Shown here piece by piece: positions 6,073-13,326 of a stretch of 64,000 nt of DNA (its first letter is position 1; the number at the start of each line of letters is the position of its first letter). Source of the stretch: Escherichia phage vB_EcoM_FJ1. The stretch lies in the sequence record MZ170040.1; one strand, 5' to 3'. Position numbers and translations under genes: made by a program. Below the pieces are notes generated by a model. That model was given only the letters and a program-made list of their open reading frames with translations. It was not told the origin of the DNA and did no database searches.

Positions 6073-6126
6073 TCCTCATGTTATGTCAGTAAGACTACTA
6101 TAACACAACACGAGGGACTTGTAAAC
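6073..6126 (-). promoter_or_regulatory. early promoter/leader cassette (GTTTAC -35, TATAGT -10, GAGGA SD), copy A of a 54-bp perfect repeat
   Basis: 54 nt identical to 20347-20400; minus strand reads GTTTAC-N18-TATAGT...CATAACATGAGGA. Confidence 0.7.
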
Positions 6127-6486
6127 TACATTTTGAACTTTTTAGTACGCGTAATAGGCATGCGTCGATTTTATACTGTTTCATTGTTTGAAGAGCAGTA
6201 TCAAAAACAGCATTAATGACGCCAATTGGATTTCCACCCAAGTTTTTAAGTTTAACTAATGATAGTTTCTCATTAACACCTATCATTACGATATGCATCA
6301 TTTTGTCGCCTGGTTTAACGTTTTATCTGTATCACCGCCAGAGGTGTATGTACAAAATCTAAATCCAGGAAGCACGCTTTCTTCGCCGGCTTGAATAGCA
6401 AAAATTTGTGGTATTTTATGCTTAGGATTTAAGTTAACAACCGGCGCCGAAGCGCCGTCAAATAATTATGTAATAAGTTCCATGAT
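6098..6486 (-). pseudogene. decayed duplicate of the alt 5' region (about 125 codons; stop at codon 6 plus a frameshift)
   Basis: DNA and protein similarity to alt codons 1 to ~125 (compare 6301-6486 with 8400-8583); ATG at 6483 followed by TAA after 5 codons; 67-aa ORF 6098-6301 matches Alt residues ~65-125 in another frame. Confidence 0.7.
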
Positions 6487-8583
6487 TTATCCTTGAACGA
6501 ACTTGTAAGGCATGTTTGCAATATCTATGCAAGACGCAATAATTCCAAGAGATGATTCTACTTTCTGTTTAACATTTGATGAAACAAATGATGCAAAGTC
6601 AACTCTGTCTTCTATTTCAATATCACCTGTCATTGCAACCAATTCACCAGTTTCCATTAAATGGTCTCCATCATAGATTACCGATTCGGTGAGCTCTTCC
6701 GTGGTCATAACTTCAGCTTGAATGAGTTTTGTATTATTAGATGTTGTTCCGTCATTATTAGAAGCATCAGTTATTTTATTAACTTTGACCATCAATCCAC
6801 GCGGTAGAATAACTTCAGCTTCTGTTGCTATTCCGAGACTTCCTGGATATACAACATTAACTTTATGAGCTCCATCAATTGCCCATCCTATTTGAACTTT
6901 AACGTATTCAGGATTTTCTTTATACGCTCTTATTTCGTTTGGATTAATAGTTATTCCTTCTTCATTTTTATCAACTGTTAATTCATTGCGAGCTTCTGGT
7001 TCTAAAAGACCAATACCAGCATGTGTAATTCCAAAACGTCCAAAAATGATAGGAGTTAAAGAAGTAGATACAAAATTTCTGAAATAGAATACTTTATTTT
7101 TAACTAGTGCTTCGTATATAGGAGCAGTCATACTTTGAGCACGATAAACTGTAATGCCTTCTGGTATACGATCACCATTTTCAAAAGCAGAATCTAAATT
7201 AGTTATAGCAGCTTCAATTTCTTTTTCACTCATTACTTCATAACGTTCTGGATCATAACGACCCAAAAGAAGATTATTGATGTCAGTATATCCTGAACCG
7301 CAATACTCTCTAATGCCACGCTTTTGTGATGGAGTATATTTAGAACCATCACGGGCAATAGTAATATCAATCATTGGACCTGCACCAATTCCAGAGAAAC
7401 TATAAATCATTCTTTTGAGGAATTTAGTTTTTGTCGCGTTCCAGGAATTTTTAGTTATTTCTTCCCAGACTTCATCTGGCTGTCCTTTACGGGTTTTATT
7501 ATGTTTATCAAGCCAAGTATCTTTATATTCTTCAAATAATTGATTAACAGCTGCTGCGTATTTCTCTAAACATTTTATTGAAGTAGTCGGTTCATTTTTA
7601 ATCGCATTAAGAATTACATCTTTAATTTTTTCAGAAACTTCATTAACCTCACTTTTTGAAAAGAATTTATAGTCATAATGAAGTTCATCTGCAGTTCCTT
7701 CGGCAATGATTTTTGCTGCCTTAGTTTTAGAAGCTAATGAATTAATTCCAATTTTCATTTCTTCTGCTTCGGGAATTAAAGGTGCAGTAGCTGGTTTATT
7801 AAAATTAGCTGCTGTAGATTCATACTTCTGGAATAATTCACTTTCAAATCTAGAAGACTCTAATGATTGACTTTGTGCAATTGCTCTACGGGAAATTTTA
7901 ACTTTAACGATTACAGCTTGATCAGAACGTTTATCATTTTCTTGTGCAATAGATGCTGCAATTGCCTCATTTTTAGTTACTTGAGCTCCGGTATCTTTAT
8001 TGATATAAACATCACCGACCTTCGATTCAACTTTAGTAAAGAGCTCGGTACTAATTTCCGGAACTCCTGGAATGTCTTCTAGTGATACATTTTTGCGATG
8101 TATAAGAATATATGCATACTTTTTATCATAATCCCAGAGTTCCTTAAGAAGGACGTATCTGCCACCTGAACGACTACGGATAAGTCTATCAACAATAACT
8201 TGAATTTGTCGAGCTTGACCAGCAGTTTTAGACTTAAGAATACGGAGCATACAGGCATCAATTTTATACTGACGCATTGTTTGCATTGCAACAGTAAAAA
8301 CCGAATTGATATAATTAATTGGGCTTGGACCAAGACCTTTCAATTTAGCAATTGAACCTTTAGCGGTTAATGTAAAAGGAACAATATGCATCATTTTATC
8401 GCCCATCTTTAAATCACGATTAGTATCACCTCCAGATGTATAGGTACATAAACGAAAGCCTGGTTGTTCAATTGCATCATCAACATGAACTGAAAAAATT
8501 TGTGGTATTTTCTTCTTTGGATTTAAGTTTGTAATCGGAAGAGTAGTATCTTCGTCAAATAATTCTGTAATTAGTTCCATCAT
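6487..8583 (-). CDS. alt: Alt ADP-ribosyltransferase (virion-packaged)
   Basis: 698 aa (T4 Alt 682); position between gene 54 and gene 30; late promoter upstream. Confidence 0.85.
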   Translation of the reverse strand: MMELITELFDEDTTLPITNLNPKKKIPQIFSVHVDDAIEQPGFRLCTYTSGGDTNRDLKMGDKMMHIVPFTLTAKGSIAKLKGLGPSPINYINSVFTVAMQTMRQYKIDACMLRILKSKTAGQARQIQVIVDRLIRSRSGGRYVLLKELWDYDKKYAYILIHRKNVSLEDIPGVPEISTELFTKVESKVGDVYINKDTGAQVTKNEAIAASIAQENDKRSDQAVIVKVKISRRAIAQSQSLESSRFESELFQKYESTAANFNKPATAPLIPEAEEMKIGINSLASKTKAAKIIAEGTADELHYDYKFFSKSEVNEVSEKIKDVILNAIKNEPTTSIKCLEKYAAAVNQLFEEYKDTWLDKHNKTRKGQPDEVWEEITKNSWNATKTKFLKRMIYSFSGIGAGPMIDITIARDGSKYTPSQKRGIREYCGSGYTDINNLLLGRYDPERYEVMSEKEIEAAITNLDSAFENGDRIPEGITVYRAQSMTAPIYEALVKNKVFYFRNFVSTSLTPIIFGRFGITHAGIGLLEPEARNELTVDKNEEGITINPNEIRAYKENPEYVKVQIGWAIDGAHKVNVVYPGSLGIATEAEVILPRGLMVKVNKITDASNNDGTTSNNTKLIQAEVMTTEELTESVIYDGDHLMETGELVAMTGDIEIEDRVDFASFVSSNVKQKVESSLGIIASCIDIANMPYKFVQG

Positions 8584-8611: not shown

Positions 8612-8632
8612 AAATTAAAGGCCCGAAGGCCT

Positions 8633-8821
8633 TTAGTAATCTAGTGGTAAGAGAGTACGATATATTTCAAACTTTGGTCCTTTTTCATAGGCATCAAATG
8701 TTTCTGTAAATTTATTATAAGCGTATGCATCTACAAATTCGAGAATGACTTGTGATACAGAAGTAGAAACATCTCCACCTTCTTTTTGAGCAATGACAAT
8801 TGTTTCTAAGTAAGCTTTCAT
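8633..8821 (-). CDS. hypothetical small protein
   Basis: 62-aa ORF; ATGA start/stop overlap with gene 30; hairpin AAAGGCCCGAAGGCCTTT at its 3' end. Confidence 0.55.
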   Translation of the reverse strand: MKAYLETIVIAQKEGGDVSTSVSQVILEFVDAYAYNKFTETFDAYEKGPKFEIYRTLLPLDY

Positions 8822-10281: not shown

Positions 10282-10547
10282 TGTTCATCCTTCAGAGTTT
10301 GGTTTACAGCTCTATTATAAATCAATTCATCATTAAGCTCAGTCAAAGACTTATGATATGTGGTTCTAACTTTATTTCCTTGCATCCAGTGCTTGATATA
10401 AATGAAACCTTGCTCTACGCATTTTTTAAAAATTCGTTCGTCTTTTTGAGCTCGGAATTCTGGATTGCATCTAAAAAATTGATTTACGTGACCGTAATCA
10501 CGTGTAGTATTACCTTCATTTTCATAAATAGTGTGAACAACAAACAT
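10278..10547 (-). CDS. hypothetical protein (30.1 position)
   Basis: 89-aa ORF; ATGA overlap with gene 30. Confidence 0.7.
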   Translation of the reverse strand: MFVVHTIYENEGNTTRDYGHVNQFFRCNPEFRAQKDERIFKKCVEQGFIYIKHWMQGNKVRTTYHKSLTELNDELIYNRAVNQTLKDEQ

Positions 10548-11386
10548 TAGAATGCTCCTTGGAAAATATTATCACCACAAGTAGGTCTATTATACAAATA
10601 CTCTATACCGCCGGGTTTAATATAGTTCCATGTCTGAAACGGATGTGTCTGATATGGATGATATAGATGATTATAAGGATTAAATCCAGGAGTTCTCCAG
10701 GTAGTGTTCCAACGAAAAGAATCGTTTTTAATCATCTTTTCAATTACATCTTTTATAGCTTTTTCACTATCAAAACTTTCTTTATTTTCCTTTGGTGAAA
10801 AAAACTTATTCTCTACATCGTTCCATGTATAAACTCGCTGAGCAGTTTTTGGAATACTGTCACGTTCCCCTCGAGCCATCCAATAAACAGGAACACTTAA
10901 TATTTCACTCGCGTGATCGCAGTGGTGAGCGAGATCGTCAATATAACAAATTACGTTATATTTCTCTTTTGCCTTTTTGAACAACTCTTCTTTTGAAGAA
11001 TCATGACCACACATCAGTACTTCTGAGAAGGCACCAGGAAAAAGAGCATTCAAATTAAATTGACGATTCAGCAGAGCGTCAATAGAATCACCCAGCGCTG
11101 TAACAGCTACAAAATTATAATCTTCTTTTAATTTGTTAATTACACACAGAGCATCTTTATATGGAGACAAGTAACGAATAAAATCTGAACGATTGTATTT
11201 TTCAATTAACTTGACACCAAGTTCTTCATCACAATTAAAAAGTTTACCAGGAGAAATAAATTTTTCATCTTGGATCATTTTTAAAATATGTTCCAACGGA
11301 AGATTATATTTCTGAGCAAAATAAGGAAGGCCTGATTGCCAGCTTAAACACACTCCATCAATATCAGTTAAAATAGTAGGCTTCAT
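10547..11386 (-). CDS. HAD-superfamily hydrolase-like protein (30.2 position)
   Basis: 279 aa; N-terminal ILTDIDGV (DxDG motif I) and downstream YIDD acidic motif. Confidence 0.7.
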   Translation of the reverse strand: MKPTILTDIDGVCLSWQSGLPYFAQKYNLPLEHILKMIQDEKFISPGKLFNCDEELGVKLIEKYNRSDFIRYLSPYKDALCVINKLKEDYNFVAVTALGDSIDALLNRQFNLNALFPGAFSEVLMCGHDSSKEELFKKAKEKYNVICYIDDLAHHCDHASEILSVPVYWMARGERDSIPKTAQRVYTWNDVENKFFSPKENKESFDSEKAIKDVIEKMIKNDSFRWNTTWRTPGFNPYNHLYHPYQTHPFQTWNYIKPGGIEYLYNRPTCGDNIFQGAF

Positions 11387-11847
11387 AGAGAGTCTCTTAA
11401 TAGGTTTAACACATCAATAAATTCAGCTTCGGTTAGTATTGTATCATCTTTTGTTAGACCACTAGCCATGCTGTGCTTCAAAACTTTTCCTTTCGAGGCT
11501 TGTAATGCATCACGAAAGCCCTTGTTTTGGATCGCTGCTTCAAAATATGCATTTGTGTATAATTCTTTCCACGCCGGGGAGTATCTTGAAAATGGAACTC
11601 CAAGCCAGAAGAGGGTTCCACGGTCCTGAGCTCTTGCATAAGACCTTCCAGCTTGTTGGGCGGCAAGCCCGGATAACCCAAATATACGACGTTGTTGTTC
11701 AACGTTTTTCACCTTGCATCCTTGGAGGAATCCTTCAAGACCTCCAAATTGAATACCATCCATAACGAAAGGCCATTGGGCGAAATTACTTAATGCACAT
11801 GATGGCCACCTAAAATTGCTTCTAATCTCTAACTCAGACATTTTCAA
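11383..11847 (-). CDS. NADAR/YbiA-like domain protein (30.3 position)
   Basis: 154 aa; LSNFAQWPFVMDG...E.FLQGCK resembles the YbiA/NADAR core SNFa.WP..DG...E.yFQa.K. Confidence 0.65.
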   Translation of the reverse strand: MKMSELEIRSNFRWPSCALSNFAQWPFVMDGIQFGGLEGFLQGCKVKNVEQQRRIFGLSGLAAQQAGRSYARAQDRGTLFWLGVPFSRYSPAWKELYTNAYFEAAIQNKGFRDALQASKGKVLKHSMASGLTKDDTILTEAEFIDVLNLLRDSL

Positions 11848-12040
11848 TGCTTATAATTTCAACATCAGCCCAATGACCATAGCAAGGAAGACGAAATTCA
11901 ACTGGCCAGTTAGGGTCCTTTTCTAATATAATAGACTCAACTCGTGGTTCTTCACGTTCATCAGTATATGGATTTTTATCTGTTACTTTATATGTGACCT
12001 TAATGTACTGAATTCCAAAAATCTTATTAATTATATTCAT
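11834..12040 (-). CDS. hypothetical protein
   Basis: 68-aa ORF in operon-like array. Confidence 0.55.
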   Translation of the reverse strand: MNIINKIFGIQYIKVTYKVTDKNPYTDEREEPRVESIILEKDPNWPVEFRLPCYGHWADVEIISIENV

Positions 12041-12234
12041 ACTAATTCCTTTAATCCGTAGATAGGAGATAATTCATCACCCATACGAAGGTCTTCATTT
12101 CCATCTACCCAGGAAACAATATAAGCCTCTTTTATTTGAACACCGCTCCATTTAAATGGAGGTAGAACCTTAGAAATTAATCCAGGTATACCAACTCCCT
12201 TTAATTCAACAGTTTGACCTAAAAAGAATTTCAT
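12037..12234 (-). CDS. hypothetical protein
   Basis: 65-aa ORF, ATGA overlap. Confidence 0.55.
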   Translation of the reverse strand: MKFFLGQTVELKGVGIPGLISKVLPPFKWSGVQIKEAYIVSWVDGNEDLRMGDELSPIYGLKELV

Positions 12235-12521
12235 TAGAACCTCATCTGAAAACCGTGCGATTTAACATTACCGCCGCCAATATCAGAGATATTAATTTCG
12301 CGCGCAATTGAAGGGTCAATGTCAATTTCACGATTGAGTTTAGTGATAGCTAAAGTATCGCGCCCATTTACAGTACGAAACTCTAAAGGACAAACCACAT
12401 CAACGTAGTTTTTAATCGATTCACTGGTAGGCTGCAAATGAGCAGGAAGGTCTTTAGGCGCCTTTGAGAAAACAACTTCACAGAAATTTTTGCGGGTATC
12501 AAAATAAGTAGTCATAAACAT
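12234..12521 (-). CDS. hypothetical protein
   Basis: 95-aa ORF. Confidence 0.55.
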   Translation of the reverse strand: MFMTTYFDTRKNFCEVVFSKAPKDLPAHLQPTSESIKNYVDVVCPLEFRTVNGRDTLAITKLNREIDIDPSIAREINISDIGGGNVKSHGFQMRF

Positions 12522-12560
12522 AGTATTTTCCTCAATAGGGGCCGAAGCCCCTCATTTATT

Positions 12561-12938
12561 TTAAATATCAAATTCGTTAAGAACTACATCAAAGATTGCT
12601 TCCAAGTGCTCAGGTTTAGCTTTGTTACTCAGAATATGACGAATCCAAGTTTTAACTAAGAGTTTACGATTAGCACCATTCCAGCAAGGATGAGTCCCTA
12701 AATCACGTTGACGGAAATCATCATCCAGAGCGATTTTAAAGTTGGAACCTTCCATCGTGATTGAAACCGTGATACCGTTTTCAAATCGCATATAAACGTA
12801 GTTAGGAGTCATATACTGTTCAATTTCGCATACTGATCCATTTTGATGTTTCCAAAGGCAGATGGTATCAATAGAACCTGCAATACCATTAGAAACATAT
12901 TTACGTTCAAAGTTAATGTAGTTCATTTTATTCTCCAA
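12561..12938 (-). CDS. hypothetical protein
   Basis: 125-aa ORF; hairpin GGGGCCGAAGCCCC after stop. Confidence 0.6.
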   Translation of the reverse strand: MENKMNYINFERKYVSNGIAGSIDTICLWKHQNGSVCEIEQYMTPNYVYMRFENGITVSITMEGSNFKIALDDDFRQRDLGTHPCWNGANRKLLVKTWIRHILSNKAKPEHLEAIFDVVLNEFDI

Positions 12939-12993: not shown

Positions 12994-13326
12994 TTATTTT
13001 ACTACTTTCCAATGCTGCATGTCAAGTTTACCAACTTTTTTCATCTTCTCAATTAAGCGTTCGGCACGTTGGCGAGCTGTAACATAATACCATTCACCTA
13101 ATTCATTTTGTTCAATTTTTCCAACGATTACTGTATTCAATTCATAAATCCAACCAGTAAAGAAATTATGAACTTGAATTGTAAAGGTGAAATCTGTTCC
13201 CATACCTTCTGTTGTTTCTACTTCAATAATATCACCTTCAACTGCCATTAAGAACCACATAGTTTCATCATATTTACCATTGAAGCATTTAGTTTTAACT
13301 GCAGCGTTCAGATTAATCGTTTTCAT
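12994..13326 (-). CDS. hypothetical protein
   Basis: 110-aa ORF preceded by early promoter with stem-loop in spacer. Confidence 0.6.
   Translation of the reverse strand: MKTINLNAAVKTKCFNGKYDETMWFLMAVEGDIIEVETTEGMGTDFTFTIQVHNFFTGWIYELNTVIVGKIEQNELGEWYYVTARQRAERLIEKMKKVGKLDMQHWKVVK

Follow-up and report, generated by a model that had tools for sequence, protein, structure and literature searches.

Within a 64,000-nucleotide stretch of the genome of Escherichia phage vB_EcoM_FJ1 (MZ170040.1; hereafter the window), a short minus-strand open reading frame (ORF) raises the question of whether this phage carries an enzyme that removes ADP-ribose and, if so, from which target. A preliminary sequence-only reading proposed that the ORF encodes a 154-aa NADAR/YbiA-like protein, situated in an ADP-ribosyltransferase-rich neighbourhood, that could either reverse a host DNA or RNA ADP-ribosylation defence or tune the ADP-ribosylation carried out by the phage itself. 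Our analysis leaves very little doubt that the gene is adfN, the gene 30.3 of a T4-like Tequatrovirus, which has already been characterised experimentally. AdfN, for anti-DarT factor NADAR, is gp30.3 of Escherichia phage T4 (Johannesman et al., Nat Commun 2025;16:1598). The gene, its fold, catalytic residues, substrate and anti-DarTG1 role were all published between 2023 and 2025, and the locus discloses no new biology. Our own results establish which gene this is, to which family its product belongs, that the product has the NADAR fold, that its catalytic residues are in place and that its C-terminus is intact; for the enzymatic activity, the specificity for guanine and the finding that AdfN is both necessary and sufficient against DarTG1, we rely on the T4 literature.

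The ORF at 11383..11847 (minus strand, stop included) has 154 codons counted from a TTG, and its translation holds the strings LSNFAQWPFVMDG and EGFLQGCK quoted in the sequence-only reading. The ORF is thus confirmed. Translation, however, almost certainly begins two codons further downstream, at the ATG at 11841, which yields a coding sequence at 11383..11841 (minus) of 152 aa plus stop, identified from the ORF, the T4 match and the Pfam family PF08010. We preferred this start because T4 gene 30.3 is annotated from the same ATG (459 nt, 152 aa), because this ATG shares the overlap ATGTCTGA (11834..11841, minus, from the sequence and the ORF table) with the stop codon of 30.4, the gene upstream, and because the published numbering of E36 and K43 fits no other start. 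The two extra codons, TTG AAA (11842..11847, minus), arose from a mechanical call from the first TTG and are probably not translated as part of the adfN product. The overlap of adfN with the 3′ end of 30.4 likely reflects translational coupling, and at the other end of the gene the adfN stop overlaps the start of gene 30.2 as ATGA (11383..11386, minus, from the sequence and the ORF table).

The window product shares 151 of its 152 residues (99.3%) with T4 gp30.3, the sole difference being M125 in place of I125. At the DNA level, the two genes are collinear without indels and differ at nine of 459 nt, eight of these changes being synonymous and one producing I125M; given this near-identity and the excess of synonymous differences, adfN is a real gene under purifying selection. 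A protein with M125 occurs at 100% identity in Escherichia phage teqskov, the adfN DNA is identical to that of Yersinia phage fPS-90 across the whole gene, and methionine and isoleucine are both common at residue 125 in an alignment of 60 gp30.3 homologues with identities down to 35%. Homologues at 35-100% identity were detected by tblastn in 1510 of 50,697 phage records, a spread that, judged from sequence comparison, is far beyond chance. Moreover, the gene order follows that of T4 (31, rIII, 30.9 to 30.4, 30.3, 30.2, 30.1, ligase (30), alt.1, alt), and orthology with T4 gene 30.3 is borne out both by near identity and by the location between 30.4 and 30.2, upstream of the DNA ligase gene. 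A megablast search with 10500..12600 returned 682 phage records, nearly all Tequatrovirus-like (Escherichia, Shigella and Yersinia phages), the best matches to this 2.1-kb query being fPS-90 and Escherichia phage VEc20 at 99.5-99.6% DNA identity. The window phage is therefore a Tequatrovirus different from T4 and closest to these two, and its adfN product has the same length, start, gene order, E36/K43/H123 and intact C-terminal helix as that of T4.

Membership of gp30.3/AdfN in the NADAR superfamily (de Souza and Aravind 2012; PF08719/DUF1768) is confirmed by converging profile and model evidence, as the sequence-only reading had anticipated. The window protein matched PF08010 (Phage_30_3, 'Bacteriophage protein GP30.3') over profile positions 1-138 with 235.2 bits against a gathering cutoff of 36 (E 2.3e-70). 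A profile built from the gp30.3 family matched E. coli YbiA (PDB 2b3w; E 0.0053) through an SNF...DG...E..FQ..K motif, and hhalign between the family and YbiA, whose sequence came from the genome of E. coli K-12, gave a probability of 94% (E 1.3e-7, 91 columns). Furthermore, PF08719 was matched directly by eight of the 60 family members (best E 1.5e-7). An AlphaFold2 (AF2) model computed from the family alignment (pLDDT 93, pTM 0.88) showed the alpha+beta fold of NADARs, a helical core flanked by small beta-hairpins. In a Foldseek search of the PDB, the top three matches were YbiA (2b3w), the Phytophthora NADAR PnNADAR with bound ADP-ribose (8bau) and the Geobacter lovleyi NADAR (8bat), with probabilities of 0.99-1.00, and every match beyond these three solved NADARs remained at or below 0.07. 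Structure prediction and comparison with YbiA, one of the checks suggested at the outset, thus placed the protein in the family with its catalytic residues present.

The 60-homologue alignment and the YbiA alignment delineate the NADAR N-terminal signature as residues 17-43 (LSNFAQWPFVMDGIQFGGLEGFLQGCK; 11713..11793, minus), which aligns to the YbiA motif FSNFAAWPIKVDG...SEHYFQAQKF and contains the catalytic residues E36 (11734..11736, minus) and K43 (11713..11715, minus). S18, N19, F20, E36, G37, F38 and Q40 are invariant in all 60 homologues, and K43 is conserved in at least 90%. The third residue, H123 (11473..11475, minus), lies in the last beta-strand (residues 120-123 of the model) and is invariant in 60 of 60 homologues. 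The last-strand residue distinguishes NADAR types, being Glu in the YbiA type, Asp in the DarG1/BC4488 type and His in the phage type. The hhalign alignment stops one residue before H123, opposite ...KLV of YbiA, and the next YbiA residue would be the Glu equivalent to H123. The Glu and Lys of the N-terminal motif and the conserved last-strand residue that characterise NADARs are accordingly all found in AdfN. Residues 138-152 form an intact C-terminal helix (11386..11430, minus; from the model and full-length T4 identity), modelled at high confidence for 138-151. PHROG phrog_652, to which gp30.3 belongs, is described by a 296-position profile, and the window protein spans only 126-272 of it; an additional N-terminal region or domain may be present in some members of this family.

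The function of the T4 protein is well documented. NADARs were shown to reverse guanine ADP-ribosylation by DarT1, with a His-bearing phage group being noted (Schuller et al. 2023, Mol Cell). In a 2024 Toxins paper, T4 gp30.3 was expressed, and all characterised E. coli and phage NADARs were active on guanosine-linked ADP-ribose. Phage crosses mapped T-even resistance to DarTG1 to 30.3, leading to its renaming as adfN (Johannesman et al., bioRxiv 2024; Nat Commun 2025;16:1598). In that work, plaquing of T2 and T4 without adfN on DarTG1 hosts was reduced by about four logs, and RB69, whose allele is frameshifted with loss of the last 15 residues, was rescued by ectopic AdfN. This 15-residue truncation correlates with sensitivity to DarTG1, and a truncated T4 allele was less active (Johannesman et al.). 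The same authors reported that E36A and K43A impaired T4 AdfN, that purified AdfN removed ADP-ribose from DarT1-modified DNA, that no association between AdfN and DarT1 was seen in a two-hybrid assay, and that the thymidine-modifying DarTG2 was not countered. A 2026 Toxins paper found that the T4 NADAR strips guanine-linked ADP-ribose (G-ADPr) and not the cytidine-linked form (C-ADPr). In addition, a 2025 transposon-sequencing preprint on T4 describes insertions in 30.3/adfN as lost specifically on a DarTG1 host. From 99.3% identity to a protein whose activity is shown in three papers, we infer that the window protein would likewise hydrolyse guanine-linked ADP-ribose. The proposed reversal of a host DNA ADP-ribosylation defence therefore coincides with what experiments have demonstrated for this 99.3%-identical protein, T4 gp30.3/AdfN.

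Taken together, these data strongly support a model in which AdfN is a minimal, single-domain ADP-ribosylglycohydrolase of the NADAR superfamily. In a DarTG1 host, the DarT1 toxin ADP-ribosylates guanines in phage DNA and thereby blocks replication; AdfN, probably made early from a transcription unit running from 30.7 to alt.1, for which both the timing and the boundaries are deduced, would cut the guanine-ADP-ribose N-glycosidic bond using E36, K43 and H123 and so restore replication. AdfN would work enzymatically on DNA rather than through binding of the toxin, and is in effect an orphan, phage-borne copy of the DarG1 antitoxin.

Several observations weigh against this interpretation or limit it. 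The window protein gave no match to PF08719, the Pfam NADAR profile, at E<=1, and a PDB search with the single sequence returned nothing relevant. The missing direct match arises because Pfam splits the phage clade into PF08010, and is not evidence against homology; the case for homology to NADARs is accordingly built from profile, transitive and structural evidence, and the Pfam profile check, had its result been taken as a refutation as first proposed, would have wrongly rejected the finding. M125 lies two positions past H123, and the M125 variant presumably behaves like T4 AdfN. The E36A and K43A proteins retained partial activity (Nat Commun 2025;16:1598). Moreover, T4 AdfN failed to neutralise DarT1 in cells that were not infected and gave T5 or Bas25 hardly any rescue, and the 2024 Toxins paper found that the phage NADAR gave cells no protection from DarT1. 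As function outside T-even infection is so limited, the mechanism as described is not complete, and AdfN may require a factor specific to T-even phages. This restriction is not caused by DNA modification, since T4-GT7 was still protected (Nat Commun 2025;16:1598), and Johannesman et al. suspect that AdfN needs a further T-even protein.

Comparison with known systems places these properties in context. DarG1 (E. coli C7; G. lovleyi 8bat) sits within DarTG1, whereas adfN is an orphan without an adjacent DarT gene: its neighbours are 30.4 and 30.2 rather than an operon partner DarT1, and Alt, the ADP-ribosyltransferase (ART) encoded nearby, is of the PF03496 exoenzyme type. DarG1 has a catalytic Asp in the last strand, whereas AdfN has His; DarG1 also possesses an extra N-terminal helix and beta-sheets, whereas AdfN consists of the core only. 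T4 AdfN, as a consequence of the behaviour described above, is no substitute for the DarG1 antitoxin in uninfected cells. NADAR(Bas32) and NADAR(Bas60), from T5-like and Vequintavirinae phages, resemble AdfN in being phage-borne and directed against DarTG1, but fall into other NADAR clades and represent independent acquisitions. Both neutralise DarT1 even when no phage is infecting and can rescue unrelated phages, in contrast to T4 AdfN, which is fully effective only in T-even infections. Two further counter-defences against DarT toxins, AdfM (T4 tk.4) and AdfA (a homologue of T4 61.2), are carried by T-even phages. AdfM, unlike AdfN, is a macrodomain protein directed against the thymidine-modifying DarTG2, and AdfA(R164H) is non-enzymatic and associates with DarT1. 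Judging by the T4 map, the AdfM and AdfA genes presumably lie outside the window.

Given that a T-even-specific factor may be missing from the picture, the gene directly downstream of adfN merits attention. Gene 30.2 (10547..11386, minus), joined to adfN by the ATGA overlap and translationally coupled to it, is annotated as 'hypothetical'; gp30.2 had no Pfam match, and a literature search found no papers on it. In its family alignment, D8, D10, G11, K132 and D150-D151 are invariant and T96 nearly so, a pattern that we read as HAD motifs. The family profile touches the 5′(3′)-deoxyribonucleotidase of PDB 2jao (E 0.016), and an AF2 model, confident for residues 1-200, gave matches to HAD hydrolases, deoxyribonucleotidases among them; variability and low confidence mark the C-terminal ~80 residues. 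The protein thus looks like a HAD-superfamily phosphatase that has escaped annotation and resembles 5′(3′)-deoxyribonucleotidases. One could imagine gp30.2 as the T-even partner of AdfN, perhaps one that processes the ADP-ribose or nucleotides set free or that recruits AdfN to replicating DNA, and the adjacency with its ATGA overlap speaks for this, yet 30.2 is kept near 30.3 in only seven of 66 distant loci, and the transposon screen on DarTG1, in the part of that preprint that is accessible, names only adfN, which argues against a partnership. We consider this proposal very improbable.

A broader survey yielded a similar picture. Across 80 gp30.3-family loci, each taken with 5-kb flanks, phmmer searches with the window neighbours and all-against-all clustering revealed no conserved partner gene of AdfN. 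Outside the close T-even relatives, 30.2, ligase or dCMP deaminase lay nearby in only seven of 66 loci. The sole widely shared cluster turned out to be a spurious antisense ORF inside the gp30.3 gene and was rejected. The genus distributions of 30.2 (1452 records) and 30.3 (1510 records) are nearly identical; as the two genes both occur widely among T4-like phages, this co-occurrence carries no information.

Regarding the transcription unit, a consensus scan revealed a sigma-70-like promoter upstream of 30.7 (TTGACA-18-TAAAAT, 11/12; 12996..13025, minus), at a position matching that of a 'predicted early promoter' annotated in fPS-90. As promoter-like sites in the region are no more numerous than expected by chance, the assignment relies on position and the fPS-90 annotation; the site is probably the early promoter of the 30.7-to-alt.1 unit containing adfN. 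A hairpin scan identified a terminator-like hairpin between alt.1 and alt (8616..8635, minus), and fPS-90 carries an annotated terminator at the equivalent place. This hairpin probably marks the end of the transcription unit, parting adfN from alt.

This arrangement bears on the alternative that AdfN tunes or reverses the ADP-ribosylation carried out by the phage's own Alt, ModA and ModB, for example on host RNA polymerase or other proteins. The alt gene (6487..8583, minus) encodes a bona fide ART domain (PF03496, E 1.9e-36) 2.8 kb from adfN on the same strand, and T4-like NADAR genes have been reported to be expressed early along with ARTs (Iyer et al. 2022), both of which would suit such a role. 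Nevertheless, four genes (30.2, 30.1, ligase and alt.1) and the hairpin at 8616..8635 separate adfN from alt, and Alt lies within 5 kb at only 15 of the 80 gp30.3-family loci, all 15 of them T-even-like. The target of Alt is protein arginine, which counts against this role. The known base specificity points the same way, since the T4 NADAR cleaves guanine-ADP-ribose and not the cytidine-linked form, and the thymidine-modifying DarTG2 is not countered. Furthermore, Johannesman et al. (Nat Commun 2025) make no mention of Alt, ModA or ModB, and the DarTG1 phenotype accounts fully for adfN. We therefore regard the tuning of Alt as having a very slim chance of being correct; it is unsupported rather than formally disproved, as we found no assay on protein-linked ADP-ribose in the literature.

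The description of the neighbourhood as ADP-ribosyltransferase-rich was likewise an overstatement, Alt being the sole ART domain found, 2.8 kb away behind the terminator-like hairpin. A tblastn search with Alt over the window, in which not every ORF was profile-scanned for ART domains, returned only Alt and its N-terminal duplications. These two duplications, which lie downstream of alt and correspond to T4 alt.-1 and alt.-2 (6098..6486, minus; Alt 57-118 matched at 61% and Alt 1-63 at 56%), carry no ART domain and are annotated likewise in T4. The window presumably ends before the place that modA and modB occupy on the T4 map, and we take the ORF at the window end to be srd from the gene order. 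The proximity of adfN and alt is conserved T4 synteny and shows no functional module. A separate observation concerns a 28-bit local similarity between Alt 390-462 (7198..7416) and gp30.3 50-106 (11524..11694), both minus, which emerged from tblastn and blastp and which none of 200 shuffles reached; a relationship between the two proteins was nonetheless rejected, as hhalign of the family against Alt gave a probability of 0.08% and the alignment placed gaps over the Alt stretch DINNLLLG, and we judged the similarity to be due to chance.

A second alternative holds that AdfN, rather than repairing DNA, is a metabolic N-glycosidase of the YbiA type acting on riboflavin-pathway intermediates, or that it hydrolyses soluble immune signals derived from ADP-ribose. 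YbiA (2b3w) and AdfN share ~18-24% identity, but the Glu that defines the YbiA type is replaced by H123 in AdfN, which is invariant across the gp30.3 family. YbiA also removes cytidine-ADPr, which the T4 NADAR does not (2026 Toxins paper), and the genomic context of its gene (dinG, rhlE, ybiB) is unlike that of adfN. For the T4 protein, moreover, direct genetics and biochemistry converge on hydrolysis of G-ADPr in DNA with a DarTG1-specific phenotype. AdfN may have a secondary activity on small molecules; as its main role, we hold a metabolic or signal-degrading function to be no better a prospect than the tuning of Alt. Finally, the notion that the adfN ORF is a non-functional remnant like the frameshift-truncated RB69 protein, which could draw on truncated or fragmentary 30.3 products of 86-109 aa in public phage genomes and on the nearest RefSeq relative, fPS-90, annotating only 126 aa, has a negligible likelihood and is already refuted by the sequence. 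The window ORF is full length, without indels relative to T4 and with catalytic residues and C-terminal helix present. Across the gene, moreover, fPS-90 and the window have identical DNA, so that the shorter product annotated in fPS-90 reflects how the gene was called and no lesion.

With the anti-DarTG1 role of AdfN thus preferred, the intact adfN leads us to predict that this phage is resistant to DarTG1, which bears on host-range prediction and phage therapy. Moreover, because a plain Pfam NADAR scan misses the AdfN clade, surveys of phage enzymes that remove ADP-ribose need PF08010 as well. Public annotation of adfN lags behind the literature: in the T4 RefSeq record NC_000866 (L001:10308-10766), gene 30.3 is still labelled 'hypothetical protein', and in fPS-90 (NC_055723; L002:9884-10264) the product is a 126-aa protein starting from Met27, which would be without the SNF motif. 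Fragments of gp30.3 of 86-109 aa are all that is listed for the T4-like phages SV76, vB_Eco_NR1, UGJNEcP4 and vB_EcoM-RPN226 (P0007, P0016, P0017 and P0051); these may be RB69-like frameshifted alleles or sequencing or annotation artefacts, and if they are natural frameshifted alleles, sensitivity to DarTG1 is predicted. A further annotated gene, 30.3′, lies out of frame inside T4 30.3, and its counterpart in the window falls at 11478..11705 (minus). The ATG start of 30.3′ is ACG in the window, where only a TTG one codon later remains, and substitutions silent in the 30.3 frame replace five residues in that of 30.3′, a pattern that suggests that 30.3′ is free of protein-level constraint.

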